Assembly: GCA_000990005.1 (NCBI GenBank)
Contig: LBPF01000006.1
Location: 33,615-97,614, forward strand
DNA length: 64,000 nucleotides
Direction: 5' to 3'
Origin: Candidatus Woesebacteria bacterium GW2011_GWB1_33_38
GTDB lineage: Bacteria > Patescibacteriota > Microgenomatia > UBA8517
Positions 5,691-45,459 of the stretch are shown here, one piece after another. The stretch's first letter is position 1, and every line of letters starts with the position of its first letter. The notes beneath the pieces were generated by a model that saw only the letters and a program-made list of their open reading frames with translations, was not told the DNA's origin and searched no databases. The position numbers were made by a program, and so were the translations under genes.

Positions 5691-6761
5691 ATGTCTATTT
5701 TTAAAAGTATACCAAATCCAGTAAATTTAATCCTAGGGTTTTTCTCAACTGACTTAGGAATTGATCTAGGAACAGCAAACACACTTGTTTATATTAAAGG
5801 TAAAGGTGTTTCTGTTCGTGAACCATCAGTGGTTGCCAGAAACAAAAAGACCAAGGAGATTTTGGCAATTGGATCAAGTGCTAAAAAGATGTTAGGTCGA
5901 GCTCCAATTTCTATTGAAGTAATCAGGCCTTTGAAAGATGGAGTTGTTGCTGACTTTGATGCAACCGCCTCAATTCTTCTTCATTATATTAAAAAAGTTC
6001 ATGAAACTGGAGGAAACATACCTAAAATTCCTAGGCCTCATGTTATAGTTGGAATTCCGTCGGGAGTTACAGACGTTGAACGAAGAGCTGTTGCTGACGC
6101 TTGTATGGATGCAGGATGCAGGCGAGTTGATTTAGTTGAAGAACCAATGGCTGCTGCAATTGGAGCCAATTTAGAGGTTAATTCTCCTGAGGGTAATTTC
6201 ATAGTGGATATTGGTGGTGGAACCTCTGAAATTGCTGTTATCTCTTTGGGTGGGACAGTAATTGGAAAATCTTTACGTGTTGCGGGGGATGAAATGGATG
6301 AGGCCATTATTAACTACGTTAAACTTAAATATTCACTTCTGTTGGGTCAACCATCTGCAGAAGCGGTGAAAATTGCAATTGGTTCGGCAATAAGTTTAGA
6401 GAAGGAAAAATCTCATGTTATAAGAGGAAGAGATTTGGAAAACGGGCTTCCTAGGTCAATAAAAATAACAGACAGTGAGATTAGAGAAGCATTAGGGCCT
6501 ATTATTCACGAAGTAATCACAGCTATATCAGATGTGTTAGAAGAAACTCCACCTGAACTTGTGAGTGACATAATGGAAAGAGGGATTTATTTAGCAGGTG
6601 GTGGCGCAATGATTCATGGAATTGATAAAGCAATTTCTGATGCAACCAAAATGCCAGTATATATTGCAGAAGATCCTCTAACCTGTGTAGTTCGAGGTTG
6701 TGGAATGCTTTTGGAAAACCCAACACTTCTTAATAGAATTAGAATTACAAAAGGACTATAA
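5691..6761 (+). CDS. mreB: Rod shape-determining protein MreB
   Basis: The listed ORF starts at 5607; the start is taken at M29 (ATG 5691, AGGA 3 nt upstream) to avoid overlap with the divergent membrane-protein gene; the sequence from DLGIDLGTANT onward matches MreB. Confidence 0.85.
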   Translation: MSIFKSIPNPVNLILGFFSTDLGIDLGTANTLVYIKGKGVSVREPSVVARNKKTKEILAIGSSAKKMLGRAPISIEVIRPLKDGVVADFDATASILLHYIKKVHETGGNIPKIPRPHVIVGIPSGVTDVERRAVADACMDAGCRRVDLVEEPMAAAIGANLEVNSPEGNFIVDIGGGTSEIAVISLGGTVIGKSLRVAGDEMDEAIINYVKLKYSLLLGQPSAEAVKIAIGSAISLEKEKSHVIRGRDLENGLPRSIKITDSEIREALGPIIHEVITAISDVLEETPPELVSDIMERGIYLAGGGAMIHGIDKAISDATKMPVYIAEDPLTCVVRGCGMLLENPTLLNRIRITKGL

Positions 6762-29611: not shown

Positions 29612-29648
29612 CACTTGACAGATTGTATGGTTATTGTATAATTATTGT

Positions 29649-38881: not shown

Positions 38882-39853
38882 TCAGGGTAAATTTCCGAGT
38901 TTATTTACTAAAACTTTAGTATTAACTTTATCTACCTTGATTAATCCTAATTCATCGGCTGCCTCAACGGTTCTATCAAAACCAAAAGCAATTCCTGTTG
39001 CTGGCATATCAAGGCCTGTTAATCTTTTCATCATCCCGTCGTAGCGTTCACCACCACCAACAGAACCTACTTTGTAATCCTCGATGACGATTTCCCATAT
39101 TGGACCTTCCGAATATGAAAATGATCTGGCAAGGGTAGGTTCGAAACGATAAAACTCACGACTAAAACCTGACTTCTCTAAATATGCAATAATTATTTTT
39201 ATAGTTTCATCTGGTTTTATTTGAGAGACAAATTTTAAGTATTCCTTAGCTTTTGAATTAGAAATTCCTTTTTTGATCATGTCTGTTATTACCCCTTCTG
39301 GACCTATCTTTTTCAACTTATCTATGGCAACTATTGCTTCGTAGGAGACACCTTTCATAAGATCACGATTATTAAATATGATTACAGGTTTTTTAAAACC
39401 TATGGAAAGATAAGTATCAATATTTTCTGCAATAACTTCTGCGTCAGCAGTAGGGCCAGCAACACCAAAAATATCAAGATCAAATTGTGTGAACTCTCTA
39501 TATCTTCCCTTTTGAGTATTTTCTGCTCTAAATACAGATTGAAATTGATAACGTTTGAAAGGAAAAACCAAACTGTTTTGATTGTTTGCAACAAACCTGC
39601 ATGTTGGAACTGTTTGATCATAACGAAGCATTACTTCACGATCTCCCAGATCCTTGAACTTATAAAACATTTTTTCATCTTCACCAACTTCACCTTTGAA
39701 TAGTGAATATGACTCAAGTGTTGGAGTTTCAATTGGTTCATAACCCCACCTTTCTGCGGTTTTGATCATAATATCTTTAACCCAGTTTCGTTTATAAACT
39801 TCACTGGGCAAAAAGTCCCTAAATCCTTTTAATGTTTGTATTTTACTTGACAT
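38882..39853 (-). CDS. hisS: Histidine--tRNA ligase, catalytic domain ORF; the anticodon-binding domain continues in another frame
   Basis: GFRDFLP, RYDQTVP and GGGERYDG class II motifs; the ORF stops at 38882 while the C-terminal domain is encoded in the +1 frame downstream. Confidence 0.75.
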   Translation of the reverse strand: MSSKIQTLKGFRDFLPSEVYKRNWVKDIMIKTAERWGYEPIETPTLESYSLFKGEVGEDEKMFYKFKDLGDREVMLRYDQTVPTCRFVANNQNSLVFPFKRYQFQSVFRAENTQKGRYREFTQFDLDIFGVAGPTADAEVIAENIDTYLSIGFKKPVIIFNNRDLMKGVSYEAIVAIDKLKKIGPEGVITDMIKKGISNSKAKEYLKFVSQIKPDETIKIIIAYLEKSGFSREFYRFEPTLARSFSYSEGPIWEIVIEDYKVGSVGGGERYDGMMKRLTGLDMPATGIAFGFDRTVEAADELGLIKVDKVNTKVLVNKLGNLP

Positions 39854-39884
39854 ATATCTATTTCTATATTATTATATCAATAAC

Positions 39885-40511
39885 CTACCTCGTTCGGTTA
39901 CGAACGAGGATTTTTTTGACTATTTCCAGATTTAAATCTTTTAACTTAGCTTTTGCTTTATAACTTTTGAAAAACGTTTCTTTATAATCAATAATTTTAG
40001 CGAAATTTGATTGATATGCAATTGCAATTGAAAATCTATTAGGTATAAAAATAGAATAAACTTTATATTTTAATTTTCTAACAATCTCAACTGAATACGC
40101 GAAATCAGCATCTCCTGAGACAATAATCGCAGTTTTAAATTTCTTTTGAAAAGCGTCTTTTGTTAGATCAACTGCTAAATGTACATCTACACCCTTTTCT
40201 TTTCCTGAAGTTGGTGATCTGTAGCCTTTGTAAAACACTAAATTGGGAGTTTTTAACACATCGTTAAAAAAGACCAATTCTTCTTTAATTTGTCTTTTTA
40301 TTTTCAAAACCTTTAAATTCTTAGCTGTTGATGGTGTATATGAAGCATAAAAATATATTTTGTCAAATTTATAAAGTTCTCTGAAATCACTTACGATCGA
40401 TTTAAAACTGGGTACTTTATCAAATCCAAAAATATCAATCAGCCCAGCAAGTAGATTTGTTCCGTCAATATATAAAAATGTTTTTTTATTATTTTTTCTT
40501 TTTGTAGACAT
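39885..40511 (-). CDS. NYN-domain (LabA-like) predicted RNase
   Basis: KKTFLYIDGTNL N-terminus and GKEKGVDVHLAVDL…AIIVSGDADF acidic motifs. Confidence 0.7.
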   Translation of the reverse strand: MSTKRKNNKKTFLYIDGTNLLAGLIDIFGFDKVPSFKSIVSDFRELYKFDKIYFYASYTPSTAKNLKVLKIKRQIKEELVFFNDVLKTPNLVFYKGYRSPTSGKEKGVDVHLAVDLTKDAFQKKFKTAIIVSGDADFAYSVEIVRKLKYKVYSIFIPNRFSIAIAYQSNFAKIIDYKETFFKSYKAKAKLKDLNLEIVKKILVRNRTR

Positions 40512-40529
40512 GGATTTATATTATCATCT

Positions 40530-41837
40530 TTAAGTTCCTTTTTGAACGAGTTTACGATTCCAATTTTCGGCAGCCTTTAAAATATATAAAACTGGTGGAA
40601 AGTTTTCTCTTGAACTTTTGCCTATTGTATAGTTTACATCTCTTTCTCGACGTTCTGTACTAATAAGAATTGTATTTTGATCTAATGTTCCCAAAATTAC
40701 CCCTTGAGCAGCATTACATGCCCAAATACTTCTTGTTAACTCAAGTGTCTTTTGCCTGATTTCATTTTCGGCAAATATCTTTCGTTTGGTTTGACTTTCA
40801 AATCGTCTTTCAACATCATCCTCAAATTTTTGATACCACTCTCTTGCAAAATCGTAATCTTTAAAGTTTTTAACTTTTTCTAAAATTTCCAATTTTACTT
40901 TTTGATAAACAGGATTTTCATTTGTAAGTTCCGAAATTGGTTTAATTACTATCCCTCGTGAATTTTGTAGATATTGCTTTACATTCACAATGTAATCTTT
41001 TATGTTTTGAAGATTTTTTAAATTAACTGGTCCAAATTCTCCAATTTCTGAATAATCTGTATCAGCAATATAAATTGTTAAGTTAGATTGAATCCCGTAA
41101 TATTCAAAAAAATTGGGAATAAGTAACATCTCATCAATGATAAGTGGTATGGCCTCAAGTTTTGGATTGTCAAGATAAGCATTCAGGTTCGGATTTGAAG
41201 TGTATCCACCTTTGTAATCAAATTCGTTTATAAGACAAAGCACCGTTATTAAGTTGATTTTTCCACCTTCTAATCCATTAAAAATAATTTGTTCAAATCT
41301 ATTCGAGCCCCAAATATTGTCTGTTTTTATTCTATTAATTTCATATTGAATTGAGGTTAATGTTAGTCCTTTTTCTTCATCTCCCATATCCTCGATGTAT
41401 TTAAGAAGCGATCTTTTTAGCTGACTTATCCTTTGGTTATATAAAGTGGTGTTTAAATATTTTTCAATATCTTGATCTGTAATTTTATTTTCTATATCTT
41501 TTTTAATAACTTTTTCTGCATCAGGCAAACTTAGATCAAGTTTGTCGGCAGTTTGACAAACCAATCTATTAAAATTATCTCCGTATGAATCGTTTGAGGG
41601 CGTTTGTTTTAGGTAATTAATTTTGGAATCCAAAGCTTCCCTTTTGAGTCTTTCGTATTCGTTGTCGTTAGTATTGATCCATTTTAGAATTCTTTTTGTT
41701 TCGAACTTTAAATTATCTAAAATCCATTTTTCACCTTCGTTAAGATTCTTTTTTGGTTTGCTTAGGCTCTTTGAAAATTCCGGAATTGAGGAATCTTCGA
41801 GAACCAAAAATGGTCCAAGTATTTTATGTAGTTCCAA
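40530..41837 (-). CDS. Hypothetical 435-aa protein (no recognisable domain); the only start is TTG with an in-frame stop immediately upstream
   Basis: ORF only; probably continuous with the upstream 103-aa ORF through a frameshift. Confidence 0.45.
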   Translation of the reverse strand: MELHKILGPFLVLEDSSIPEFSKSLSKPKKNLNEGEKWILDNLKFETKRILKWINTNDNEYERLKREALDSKINYLKQTPSNDSYGDNFNRLVCQTADKLDLSLPDAEKVIKKDIENKITDQDIEKYLNTTLYNQRISQLKRSLLKYIEDMGDEEKGLTLTSIQYEINRIKTDNIWGSNRFEQIIFNGLEGGKINLITVLCLINEFDYKGGYTSNPNLNAYLDNPKLEAIPLIIDEMLLIPNFFEYYGIQSNLTIYIADTDYSEIGEFGPVNLKNLQNIKDYIVNVKQYLQNSRGIVIKPISELTNENPVYQKVKLEILEKVKNFKDYDFAREWYQKFEDDVERRFESQTKRKIFAENEIRQKTLELTRSIWACNAAQGVILGTLDQNTILISTERRERDVNYTIGKSSRENFPPVLYILKAAENWNRKLVQKGT

Positions 41838-42073
41838 CTTTCAGCCCGACTTCTTATTTTTTCAATAATCTGTTTTGCAACTACAGACTTATTTTGATTT
41901 AAACGCAGAATTGTTGAATCTACTTCTAACTGAATATCTGATTTAATTGACTCTGCTAGTGATACAATTTGATTTGACCACGGAAAAAGCTGACGATCTA
42001 AAAATCGTCCAAATAACAGTTCAATATTTATGTTTTTGTTATCTTTTATTCTTTCCATTTTTATAAATTTCAT
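41762..42073 (-). CDS. Hypothetical 103-aa ORF, probably the N-terminal part of the downstream 435-aa gene
   Basis: The listed ORF 41762..42118 is trimmed to MKFIK… because its first 15 codons overlap tRNA-His; 76-nt same-strand overlap with the next ORF. Confidence 0.35.
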   Translation of the reverse strand: MKFIKMERIKDNKNINIELLFGRFLDRQLFPWSNQIVSLAESIKSDIQLEVDSTILRLNQNKSVVAKQIIEKIRSRAESWNYIKYLDHFWFSKIPQFRNFQRA

Positions 42074-42074
42074 T

Positions 42075-42150
42075 TGGGGTGGGGGAGGGGGAATGATCCC
42101 CTGATTTCGGCTCCACAAGCCGACGTGTTTCCGACTACACTACCTCCACC
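42075..42150 (-). tRNA. tRNA-His (anticodon GTG) with encoded G-1 and 3' CCA
   Basis: The reverse complement is G-GTGGAGG-TA-GTGT-AGTCGGAA-ACAC-G-TCGGC-TTGTGGA-GCCGA-AATC-AGGGG-ATCATTC-CCCCT-CCCCCAC-C-CCA; G-1 pairs with C73 as in bacterial tRNA-His. Confidence 0.7.
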
Positions 42151-42192
42151 AAACAAAAAGTCCCGTTTGTCAAAACAAACGAGATGTTCTAT

Positions 42193-42220
42193 AAAAACAA
42201 AAAGACCGCTAACCGCGGTC
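42193..42220 (-). terminator. Rho-independent terminator (GACCGC-GGTTA-GCGGTC followed by TTTTTGTTTTT)
   Basis: Perfect 6-bp GC-rich stem plus a U-tract on the minus strand. Confidence 0.6.
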
Positions 42221-42352
42221 AAAATATTTTTTATTTCCATCTCTACTTTGCGGTGACAATGGTTGACTAATTTTTACAGTTTGTCTTCTGTCTAGCATTT
42301 TGGCTAGCTCCTCCCGAATCGTGACTTCGGTAAAACGGATTTGTTAAAATGT
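42209..42352 (-). ncRNA. Candidate small structured RNA (about 160 nt from promoter to terminator), possibly encoding a 29-aa peptide (42209..42298)
   Basis: Bounded by a consensus promoter and a terminator; internal hairpins (CCGAA-GTCACGA-TTCGG; GACAA…TTGTC); a GGGAGGAG motif 11 nt upstream of an ATG. Confidence 0.4.
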
Positions 42353-42359
42353 ATTTTGT

Positions 42360-42387
42360 ATTATATCAAGAAATTCAGCCCTGTCAA
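42360..42387 (-). promoter_or_regulatory. Consensus sigma-70 promoter (TTGACA-16 nt-TATAAT)
   Basis: Both hexamers are perfect on the minus strand. Confidence 0.6.
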
Positions 42388-42401
42388 ATTTAGCTTCTGT
42401 T

Positions 42402-42426
42402 AAGGTCTGACCTTACAAGGTCGGGG
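42402..42426. repeat. Palindrome element copy 3 of 3 (AAGGTCTGACCTT-ACA-AGGTCGGGG)
   Basis: Overlaps the stop of minus-strand gene 42413..43237 and sits 15 nt upstream of the -35 of the small-RNA promoter. Confidence 0.7.
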
Positions 42427-43827: not shown

Positions 43828-45150
43828 ATGGCTGATAATAATCAAATTAGAGTACCACCGCATAGTATTGAAGCTGAACAAAGTGTCTTGGGGGCACTAC
43901 TCCTTGATAAAGATGCAGTTATTGCTGTTGCTGAATTTTTACTTGCAGAGGACTTCTATGATGAACGTCATAATGAAATATATGAAGCCATTTTAACTCT
44001 TTATGAAGAAAGATCACCTGTTGACGTTTTAACAGTTGCAGAAAAGTTAAAGAAAAACAAAAATTTAAAAAAAATAGGGGGAGCATCATACTTAACTAAT
44101 ATTGTCAATAAAGTTCCAACTGCAGCTCACGTTGAACATTACGGGAAGATTGTCAAGGATTTGGCCGTAAAAAGAGCTTTAATGAAAGCTGCTTCAAGAC
44201 TTGTAGACTTTTCAACCGATGAAGGTATTTCTTCTGCTGAACTATTAGATAAAGCAGAAGCTGAAGTTTTTTCCTTAACCCAAAAACATTTAACTAAAGC
44301 TTTTACATCAGTCAGGGATACTTTGGCTGAAAGTTTTGATAGATTAGATGAACTTCATAAACAAGGTGAAGGTTTAAGAGGAATTTCAACGGGATTTGAA
44401 AGTTTGGATAATGCACTGGCCGGATTACAAAAAAGTAATTTAATAATACTTGCGGCGCGCCCTGGTATTGGTAAAACCTCTTTTGCATTAGGAATTGCTC
44501 AAAATGCAGCCGTCAAAAATAAAAAAAATGTTGGCTTTTTCTCTCTTGAAATGAGCAAGGAAGAGCTTGTCGATAGACTTCTTGTTGCCCAAGCAGATAT
44601 TGATGCCTGGAGGTTAAAAACAGGTAAGTTAACCGAGGATGACTTTACTAAACTTTCAAATGCCATGGGAGTTTTGGCAGAAGCTTCTCTTTATATTGAT
44701 GATACACCAGCTCTTTCAATACTTGAAATGAGAACAAAAGCAAGAAGGCTCCAAGTAGAACATGGTTTGGATTTAATAGTTGTTGATTATTTACAACTTG
44801 CAAGAAGTAGAAACTTGGAAAATAGGGTACAAGAGGTAAGTGAAATTTCTCAAGGACTTAAAAATCTCGCCCGTGAACTTAAAGTTCCTGTAATTGGTAT
44901 ATCTCAACTGTCACGCGGAGTTGAACAAAGGGGGACAAGAAAGCCCCAACTTTCGGACCTTCGTGAGTCTGGATCAATTGAACAAGATGCTGACGTTGTA
45001 ATGTTTTTATGGCGTGAAAATGAGGATGATTTTGAAAATATAATGCTTGATATTGCCAAACACAGAAACGGACCCCTTGCTTCAGTTCCATTATTCTTCA
45101 AGGGAGATAGAATCAAGTTTTTCCCGAGAGATACAAAACATACAAAATAG
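43828..45150 (+). CDS. dnaB: Replicative DNA helicase DnaB
   Basis: Walker A GIGKTS, FFSLEMS, RecA-like C-terminal domain. Confidence 0.9.
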   Translation: MADNNQIRVPPHSIEAEQSVLGALLLDKDAVIAVAEFLLAEDFYDERHNEIYEAILTLYEERSPVDVLTVAEKLKKNKNLKKIGGASYLTNIVNKVPTAAHVEHYGKIVKDLAVKRALMKAASRLVDFSTDEGISSAELLDKAEAEVFSLTQKHLTKAFTSVRDTLAESFDRLDELHKQGEGLRGISTGFESLDNALAGLQKSNLIILAARPGIGKTSFALGIAQNAAVKNKKNVGFFSLEMSKEELVDRLLVAQADIDAWRLKTGKLTEDDFTKLSNAMGVLAEASLYIDDTPALSILEMRTKARRLQVEHGLDLIVVDYLQLARSRNLENRVQEVSEISQGLKNLARELKVPVIGISQLSRGVEQRGTRKPQLSDLRESGSIEQDADVVMFLWRENEDDFENIMLDIAKHRNGPLASVPLFFKGDRIKFFPRDTKHTK

Positions 45151-45370: not shown

Positions 45371-45459
45371 AATTGTTCACCTCCCACTTCAAATAAGTAA
45401 GTTTTTGAATTATAACATGATATTTGATAATGTCAAGATTGTGGGTTATTATTTATGTA

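Follow-up and report, generated by a model that had tools for sequence, protein, structure and literature searches.

We analyzed a 64,000-nucleotide (nt) stretch of DNA from Candidatus Woesebacteria bacterium GW2011_GWB1_33_38 (contig LBPF01000006.1, positions 33,615 to 97,614; hereafter the window, in whose numbering positions are given) and, within it, the region immediately upstream of the tRNA-His gene. An initial annotation made from the letters alone had proposed this region as a novel small RNA or a dual-function small open reading frame (ORF). Judged from its sequence and from its relatives, the region is very probably a T-box-derived, cis-acting leader of an operon of tRNA-His and hisS, the gene for histidyl-tRNA synthetase (HisRS). 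The family to which it belongs appears to be a histidine T-box with an ultrashort Stem I, in which the Specifier would be displayed in a terminal, anticodon-loop-like loop. Because two defining features, a UGGN bulge and the long Stem I that bears a platform, are missing from the window copy, it is a derived T-box variant and not a canonical member of the class. For the locus as a whole, we regard a His T-box-type leader of the variety termed type B below as the probable explanation.

The promoter and the first terminator, T1, of this leader are the following.

42360 to 42387, minus strand: promoter of the sigma-70 type, with TTGACA (42387 to 42382), a 16-nt spacer, and TGaTATAAT (42368 to 42360), an extended −10 element.
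42204 to 42220, minus strand: hairpin of terminator T1, GACCGC-GGUUA-GCGGUC, then UUUUUGUUUUU (U tract 42203 to 42193).

What the initial annotation observed here was confirmed. The minus strand promoter matches the consensus at 12 of 12 positions, with the 16-nt spacer and the extended −10 element in addition, and perfect TTGACA-N16-18-TATAAT sites occur three times in the whole window compared with 0.07 expected by chance from shuffled sequences. Homologs keep TTGAC(A/T)-N16-17-TA(G/T/A)AAT at the same distance upstream of ACAUUU, and transcription would be expected to start near 42353. A transcript from there to 42193 measures 161 nt, in line with the structured RNA of about 160 nt described earlier, and folds better than its shuffled versions (z = −2.5 over 165 nt, falling to z = −4.0 with the next hairpin added); a discrete RNA of about 160 nt would probably be visible in RNA-seq. 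The reported GC enrichment was right in direction, albeit mild (37% compared with 33% in the window). The intrinsic terminator placed at 42193 to 42220 is indeed present as a GACCGC/GCGGUC hairpin followed by a U tract, was picked up by our terminator scan, and has a hairpin energy of −11.5 kcal/mol. The initial annotation had seen no hallmarks of tmRNA, SRP RNA, RNase P, or 6S RNA; a search of the window against Rfam at the gathering score found no match besides four tRNAs, and relaxed matches to PyrR, the L10 leader, the Trp leader, and others reached 13–23 bits (E of about 0.1–10) and were treated as chance.

Downstream of the predicted start, the RNA contains a compact decoding core, the parts of which are named after their T-box counterparts.

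42309 to 42339, minus strand: ultrashort Stem I, with base helix UCC (42339 to 42337):GGA (42311 to 42309) and K-turn-like unpaired strands.
42330 to 42326 with 42318 to 42314, minus strand: upper helix of Stem I, CCGAA:UUCGG, with the 7-nt terminal loop GUCACGA (42325 to 42319).
42321 to 42323, minus strand: presumed Specifier, the His codon CAC, in the terminal loop of Stem I.
42292 to 42307, minus strand: Stem II, a 5-base pair helix CUAGC/GCUAG with the conserved loop CAAAAU.
42265 to 42291, minus strand: Stem IIA, hairpin ACAG/CUGU (42291 to 42276), with the F-box-like CUGUAAAAA.
42285 to 42283 with 42267 to 42265, minus strand: pseudoknot IIB, in which the loop GAC pairs with GUC just before AACC.

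Conservation of structure in relatives, which had been suggested as a check, is strong. In an alignment of 23 distinct sequences, 97.1% of the cells are standard pairs, and both partners vary at 16 of the 20 pairs. With the pseudoknot included, covariation scores 0.696 compared with 0.188 ± 0.019 for shuffled alignments (none of 500 reached it) and at most 0.152 when the partners were slid; the alignment was fitted to the model, which favors the structure, but compensatory exchanges are also plain in the raw sequences. Changes on both sides affect all five upper pairs of Stem I, all five pairs of Stem II (in which 99% of the cells are paired), two of the four pairs of Stem IIA, and all three pairs of the pseudoknot (GAC/GUC, GCC/GGC, GUC/GAC, AGA/UCU, and others), and the base helix of Stem I shows one C-G to U-A exchange. 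A P1 helix, UCCGUUUU:GAGAUGGA, drawn by RNAfold as the closing stem of a multiloop, was rejected in that role because a C-G to U-A double change in two relatives (L001 and L031) favors UCC:GGA; P1 may be an alternative state. A covariance model built from 22 core sequences finds a single copy in the window (42354 to 42236, 132.8 bits), and this model together with a T-box regular expression, applied to the window and to about 230 kb from related loci, found no further copies. Every family member found is His-specific.

The loop sequence GUCACG is invariant in 23 of 23 sequences, although the stem below it has at least seven different sequences. As expected of a Specifier at the sequence level, CAC complements the GUG anticodon of the neighboring tRNA-His. 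Across the family, the loop of Stem I measures 7–8 nt, its helix 5 base pairs, and its base helix 3 base pairs; the tandem G-A pairs of a K-turn are present in some homologs (L012 and L017), and the window has UA opposite GA. The long Stem I of canonical T-boxes, which has a K-turn at its base, an S-turn in the Specifier internal loop, and a distal platform stacking on the tRNA elbow, is thus missing from the window. Stem II is likewise short and without an S-turn, and with (G/U)GUAAA at the F-box position, both Stem II and a Stem IIA/B pseudoknot with an F-box are in place. In one relative, the Specifier hairpin is separated from the 5′ strand of the Stem I base by a 30-nt hairpin-forming insertion (L005:3838–3868).

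The gene upstream of the element encodes a 274-amino acid (aa) protein that shares 100% identity with one from Candidatus Woesebacteria bacterium GW2011_GWA1_33_30, and the local order of DnaB, a metallo-β-lactamase-fold protein, the 274-aa protein, a variable insert, and hisS is kept in the group. By synteny, the same RNA was found after the 274-aa gene at six loci (L001, L005, L007, L009, L011, and L047); five others (L003, L008, L010, L046, and L048) have no leader, and in them a short hisS directly abuts the 274-aa gene. A metagenome scan, whose pattern required AACCATTGTC and GAGATGGA and placed no constraint on the loop of the first hairpin, returned 34 loci. The element is present in 23 of them, four of which duplicate or nearly duplicate L001, L005, and L011, and the other 11, chance matches in coding DNA, were discarded. 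This gives 17 further distinct loci beyond the synteny set and about 24 related Woesebacteria/Microgenomates loci in all; a scan of genome contigs gave at least two loci.

Throughout, tRNA-His(GUG) and/or hisS follow the element on its 3′ side in the same orientation, and in many cases there is no space for a separate promoter. tRNA-His(GUG) is found downstream in 18 loci and a HisRS homolog in 15. In the window and in at least 10 other loci, the 5′ end of tRNA-His follows the last terminator U tract by 15 nt or less. At L005, an M20 peptidase-hisS operon has its Shine-Dalgarno sequence and ATG within about 20 nt after the U tract of T1, and at L009, the leader ends about 50 nt before the ATG of hisS. 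The other genes downstream of the element differ between loci; among their products are the M20 peptidase, an EamA transporter, HAD hydrolases, a nucleoside hydrolase, an AstE/AspA-like deacylase, and proteins with no Pfam match.

The T-box relationship is clearest in 14 relatives, termed type A, in which the leader continues with AAGAAUGGGACCGCGG. Their sequence AAG(A/G)AUGGGACCGCG agrees with the published T-box consensus AGGGUGGNACCGCG (PMC11297988) at 12–13 of 14 positions. All 14 have an unchanged UGGGACC bulge, whose UGGG complements the C73-CCA end of tRNA-His; G, the fourth base of the bulge, matches C73 of every tRNA-His found. The antiterminator consists of helix A1, which is UAAGAA:UUCUUA in ten and AAGGA:UCCUU in four (96% paired, with the A-U to G-C exchange fitting in 14 of 14), and helix A2 (95% paired); in the preceding Stem III, six of eight pairs have changed on both sides. 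The 3′ strands of A1 and A2 are also the 5′ strand of a second terminator, T2, with CUCGU-U(U/C)CUU in common, and T2 is long in these leaders (fold energy of −27 to −40 kcal/mol). Helix A2 is interrupted by an insertion of 30–40 nt that holds the 3′ strand of T1, a U tract, and a small hairpin. T1 of type A is formed when the bulge pairs with this insertion (GGGACC:GGUCUC or GGUUC, −7 to −12 kcal/mol), followed by 5–9 U residues, and an uncharged CCCA-3′ end bound to UGGG would compete directly with it. Type A thus shows the sequence and structure of a T-box except for the long Stem I.

A relaxed search with the Rfam T-box model, RF00230, gave the same assignment. Type A locus L014 is matched end to end (positions 1–219, 37.3 bits, E = 6e-7 in a 361-nt search). 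The model takes the first hairpin as the base of Stem I, the 7-nt loop standing in for 76 of its own positions, the second as Stem II, the third as Stem IIA/B, a further hairpin as Stem III, and AGGAUGGGACCGCGGGA...CUCGUUCCUU as the T-box antiterminator. L034 reaches 27.2 bits, and L022, also of type A, gave no RF00230 match.

The window and ten other loci (L001, L005, L007, L009, L024, L030, L032, L036, L045, and L047) form type B, in which the core is followed by a different 3′ half. In the window, its parts between the core and the tRNA gene are as follows.

42236 to 42264, minus strand: conserved 29-nt linker, AACCAUUGUCACCGCAAAGUAGAGAUGGA, which separates the pseudoknot from Stem III and counts as an insertion in the Rfam T-box model.
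42222 to 42236, minus strand: residual Stem III, an all-A-U hairpin AAAUA-AAAAA-UAUUU, located where type A has its covarying Stem III.
42193 to 42221, minus strand: degenerate T-box sequence fused to T1, UUUUGACCGCGG in place of AAUGGGACCGCGG, with visible homology to the type A T-box sequence.
42151 to 42186, minus strand: terminator T2, UCUCGUUUGU-UUUG-ACAAACGGGA (42184 to 42161), then CUUUUUGUUU, found by the terminator scan.
5′ strand 42259 to 42238 and 3′ strand 42186 to 42167, minus strand: Px, a putative alternative antiterminator, mutually exclusive with T2.

The window counterpart of the T-box sequence is AUAUUUUGACCGCG, in which ACCGCG is retained and UGG has become UUU. The residual Stem III is weak alone, and its position is occupied in type B relatives by AAAUUAA/UUAAUUU and similar sequences. 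T1 of type B is strong and bulge-free (−9 to −11.5 kcal/mol) with a long U tract, and T2 is short (−9 to −14.5 kcal/mol); CUCGUUU in the T2 of the window is homologous to the strand that antiterminator and terminator have in common in type A. The decoding core and its CAC loop are nevertheless intact in 11 of 11 type B loci, and the core of the window is near-identical to type A cores such as that of L013. Between L022 (257–377, type A) and L045 (2839–2959, type B), the 121-nt cores are identical and the 3′ halves differ, which suggests, at the level of sequence, a recent replacement or recombination of the expression platform. Both types also occur on one 549-kb contig (Ga0265292_1000015), type A before tRNA-His (L013) and type B, with T1 only, before the M20 peptidase-hisS operon (L038, which equals L005).

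The canonical helix A1 is absent from the window, where the putative helix Px, supported by energy and conservation, would compete with T2. In type B, the T2 region is nearly the reverse complement of the linker (UUGUCA:UGACAA, GCAAA:UUUGU, and AGAGAU:AUCUCU), and the duplex of linker and T2 region reaches −15.6 to −22.5 kcal/mol with z down to −3.8, exceeding T2 itself. Px is the minimum-free-energy conformer in five of seven full type B leaders and lies within 0–8 kcal/mol of the T2 conformer; in the window, where it is part of the minimum-free-energy structure, the two conformers are 3.6 kcal/mol apart (−52.0 for Px compared with −48.4 for T2). Such a balance in the energy model is as expected of an expression platform. 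In the T2 conformers, GAGAUGGA of the linker tends to pair with the 5′ UCCGUUUU, which would compete with the base helix of Stem I; this suggests how the linker might be released for Px once tRNA binds the decoding module. Five of the six loci that were reached through synteny alone have an identical linker, and its conservation is therefore more than an effect of the search pattern. It is equally conserved in type A and type B leaders. In type A, the pairing of linker and T2 region is not significant (z of about 0), and Px offers no explanation for the conservation of the linker there. The CACCGC of the linker was also considered as an antiterminator for T1 and rejected, as it pairs with GCGGU only where T1 is GACCGC/GCGGUC and not at the loci with GACGC/GCGUC.

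The second terminator, which lies between T1 and the tRNA and was absent from the initial annotation, leads directly into the genes of the operon.

42075 to 42150, minus strand: tRNA-His(GUG), found with ARAGORN and Rfam, with its body at 42149 to 42075, an encoded G-1 at 42150, discriminator C73, and CCA.
38882 to 42073, minus strand: downstream genes from ORFs and Pfam, namely a 103-aa ORF, a 435-aa ORF, an NYN-domain protein, and a HisRS catalytic-core protein (39853 to 38882).

The U tract of T2 runs straight into the 5′ end of tRNA-His, and because tRNA-His starts immediately after it, this would be the first regulated gene; the co-oriented genes at 38882 to 42073 are likely the remainder of the regulated operon. 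A promoter scan of the minus strand from 42360 to 42150 found no promoter-like site of at least 9/12. A promoter belonging to tRNA-His itself was rejected likewise, there being no such site between T1 and the tRNA; the TTGACA in the loop of T2 has no −10 partner.

We propose that the near-consensus promoter would start the RNA near 42353 and that the leader would fold into a decoding module of ultrashort Stem I, short Stem II, and the pseudoknot of Stem IIA/B, in which the CAC of the Stem I loop would pair with the GUG anticodon of tRNA-His. Two intrinsic terminators would then act in series, T1 giving an RNA of about 160 nt and T2 abutting the tRNA gene, such that only read-through would yield tRNA-His and the downstream HisRS-like gene. 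In type A, this would involve Stem III, the UGGGACC bulge for uncharged C73-CCA, and an antiterminator A1/A2 that shares a strand with T2, with UGGG also part of the T1 stem. For type B, the likeliest switch would set the T2 hairpin against the long-range Px, biased by the binding of tRNA-His to the decoding module, and T1 may be a leaky or otherwise controlled first gate. The conservation, covariation, synteny, and alternative pairings are observed; the binding of tRNA, the direction of its effect, and any continued sensing of charging are inferred. That the type B copy still responds to tRNA-His is, on this comparative basis, reasonably likely; the specific Px mechanism is put forward tentatively.

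A joint and bolder claim, which is possible but which we would not favor as it stands, is that type B is a rewired T-box that has given up the charging sensor, reads only free tRNA-His, by a codon–anticodon loop–loop contact, switches between Px and a 5′ UCCGU:AUGGA helix, and autoregulates its ligand's own tRNA gene together with hisS.

Several observations weigh against reading the window element as a T-box. The tRNA-elbow platform that, according to a review (PMC7583486), transcriptional T-boxes generally need as part of a long Stem I is absent. So is the defining UGGN bulge, which in T-boxes pairs with the NCCA end of the tRNA and normally senses its charging, and the homologous position of which reads UUUG in the window and UAAG, UUAG, AAGG, or UUGG at other type B loci. 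RF00230 does not report the window element even at E ≤ 10; it misses most type A relatives, and both of the matches described above fall far below its gathering score of 93 bits. Px is supported by energy and conservation and not by covariation, the linker being invariant, and AACCATTGTC and GAGATGGA were preset in the metagenome search pattern. T1 has no conserved competitor in type B, in which blocking it costs 7–11 kcal/mol and no recurrent partner is found, and L005 and L024 have T1 only and no T2. The loss and variability of UGG, the unopposed T1, and the two loci that keep only T1 would also suit a T-box-derived relic that no longer responds to tRNA, with T1 and T2 serving as a constitutive attenuator that damps a very strong promoter ahead of tRNA-His and hisS. 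We consider this rather unlikely. The core and CAC loop remain intact in all 11 type B loci on several different fully paired Stem I and Stem II sequences (although the search pattern would miss decayed copies), type A and type B leaders coexist in one genome on different operons (L013 and L038), and T2 has evolved extended complementarity to the linker, as a switch would need.

The remaining explanations treat the element as an independent RNA, a protein-binding site, or a gene. A trans-acting small RNA of about 160 nt ending at T1, with its adjacency to tRNA-His coincidental, would account for the consensus promoter, the strong hairpin and U-tract terminator, and the highly conserved core, and terminated riboswitch leaders do act in trans elsewhere, as do the SreA and SreB S-adenosylmethionine riboswitches of Listeria. 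A promoter and T1 are present, as in a small RNA gene, but the position of the element across relatives is not independent of its flanking genes: it stands directly 5′ of hisS, M20 peptidase-hisS, or tRNA-His, leaving no space at several loci for those genes to have promoters of their own, it has the parts of a T-box leader, and the full T-box antiterminator of type A makes sense only in cis. The stand-alone novel small RNA of the initial annotation is therefore not upheld, and we think a trans-acting role very improbable. The outcome comes closer to the alternative named in that annotation, a tRNA-His promoter with a processed leader, except that the leader is of the T-box type. Autoregulation by HisRS at a protein-binding operator, like that at the E. 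coli thrS leader, would agree with hisS lying downstream and with a conserved 7-nt hairpin loop that resembles an anticodon loop. The loop, however, bears the codon CAC and not the anticodon GUG and hence complements the tRNA without mimicking it, the HisRS-like protein of the window has no anticodon-binding domain, and the T-box features of relatives account for the conservation, all of which leave this explanation with hardly any weight. As to a gene, the ORF in question is the following.

42209 to 42298, minus strand: 29-aa ORF, not a gene, translating to MLDRRQTVKISQPLSPQSRDGNKKYFDRG, with its ATG at 42298 to 42296.

The ORF had been reported with its stop codon in the terminator stem; the translation is exact, and the UAG spans the loop and the first base of the 3′ stem. 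Its ATG lies 11 nt downstream of GGAGG, and it ends in the terminator, as a small protein or dual-function RNA might. The apparent Shine-Dalgarno sequence GGAGGAG is nevertheless the 3′ strand of the Stem I base, and the ATG consists of the last two bases of the Stem II loop and the first base of its 3′ strand, which is G in two of 23 sequences; the others have AUA or AUC at the homologous position, as set by the Stem II pair. An ATG is accordingly found there in 2 of 23, and the frame is not conserved, varying between 11 and 88 codons. Stem substitutions are compensatory for the RNA and yet non-synonymous in the frame, and the sole conserved peptide segment, QPLSPQSRDG, mirrors the invariant linker. 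The dual-function idea thus fails, and a gene for MLDRRQTVKISQPLSPQSRDGNKKYFDRG is almost certainly not what this region is. A His leader peptide was rejected as well, as His codons are absent from the 29-aa frame and the frame is not conserved. The T-box-derived cis leader remains our preferred reading.

Several further features of the neighborhood and of the related loci were noted. The HisRS-like protein of the window (38882–39853, minus strand) has 323 aa and consists, according to Pfam, of the catalytic core alone. Relatives without the leader have a short HisRS (267–293 aa) abutting the 274-aa gene (L003, L008, L010, L046, and L048), and leader-bearing relatives L001, L007, L009, L011, and L047 have a full-length HisRS (about 400–426 aa); L005 is an exception, with a leader and yet a short HisRS. 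Upstream of hisS in L047, a noncoding stretch (6206–6570) looks like a frame-disrupted remnant of the C terminus of the 435-aa protein (40530–41837 in the window). DnaB has an intein (Intein_splicing and LAGLIDADG) in several relatives (L003, L005, and L010), and the window DnaB (43828–45150) has none. At 42401–42422 (minus strand), overlapping inverted repeats GACCTT-GT-AAGGTC-A-GACCTTA surround the stop codon of the 274-aa ORF; this is the palindrome element of the initial annotation, it has a longer version in L001 (AAGGTGAGACCTT...AAGGTCTCACCTT), and it may serve the upstream gene as a terminator or RNA-stability hairpin. The other two perfect promoters of the window lie at 45409–45436 (minus strand) and 29615–29642 (plus strand). 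The former precedes a 69-aa ORF (45370 to 45161) with the ribosome-binding site GGGAGGTG and no Pfam match. Finally, an ORF with a GIY-YIG domain (46791 to 46399, minus strand) overlaps the 5′ part of tRNA-Leu(CAA) (46444 to 46359).

T-box riboswitches are regarded as mainly Gram-positive, and Rfam does not annotate this element. A full-text literature search returned no report of a T-box with Candidate Phyla Radiation (CPR) or Patescibacteria, which is no proof of newness, and no relevant report of a T-box upstream of a tRNA gene, the one match to "upstream of a tRNA" being unrelated. TBDB searched for class II T-boxes, those with a truncated Stem I, only in Actinobacteria (PMC7778990). If our reading of the sequences holds, CPR bacteria with tiny genomes would keep a tRNA-sensing leader for histidine, and a regulated unit could begin with its ligand's own tRNA gene, creating a feedback loop on the supply of tRNA-His. 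A terminator-based T-box with an ultrashort Stem I runs against the platform generalization (PMC7583486). Should the rewired reading prove true, the family as a whole would be the first transcription-terminating T-box that works without a tRNA-elbow platform and, in type A, the first T-box with a terminator stem containing the acceptor-binding UGGG. The pairs of type A and type B leaders (L022 and L045; L013 and L038) offer a natural experiment on the contribution of UGGN and on rewiring after its loss. In annotations, the appropriate label for the element is cis-regulatory leader and not small RNA or small ORF. Overall, it represents a known principle in an unexpected lineage with several non-canonical, testable features.

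Compared with canonical T-boxes (RF00230; B. subtilis tyrS and glyQS), the element is alike in being the 5′ leader of a synthetase operon with the matching codon displayed in Stem I, and in its Stem II, its Stem IIA/B pseudoknot with an F-box-like sequence, its Stem III, and its output through an intrinsic terminator; type A is alike also in the T-box sequence, a UGGN matched to the discriminator, and an antiterminator sharing a terminator strand. It differs in that Stem I has 5 base pairs and a 7–8-nt loop without the platform, Stem II has no S-turn, and a 29-nt linker is inserted. It differs further in having two serial terminators, the first built from the T-box sequence, and in that the ligand's tRNA gene usually comes first; the window copy has no UGGN, and the scores obtained lie far below the Rfam threshold.

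The closest described relatives are the ultrashort-Stem I T-boxes of actinobacterial ileS (Sherwood et al. 2015, via PMC7583486; class II in TBDB, PMC7778990). According to these accounts, they are alike in a truncated Stem I without the elbow platform, in reliance on Stem II and the Stem IIA/B pseudoknot, and, for ileS-type T-boxes, in discriminator insertions in helix A2 (PMC7583486). The ileS T-boxes are described there as translational, acting by sequestration of the Shine-Dalgarno sequence, and as retaining UGGN, and an ultrashort Stem I is given as a feature of translational T-boxes (PMC7583486). The element described here, in contrast, has hairpin and U-tract terminators, a CPR host, specificity for His, and a position before a tRNA gene. 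The staphylococcal glyS T-box with its "stem Sa" (PMC4574755, PMC9177973) provides a parallel for a lineage-specific insertion in helix A2, which in type A amounts to 30–40 nt. Stem Sa is not described as a terminator, whereas the insertion here makes an extra terminator, the 5′ strand of which is the acceptor-binding bulge.

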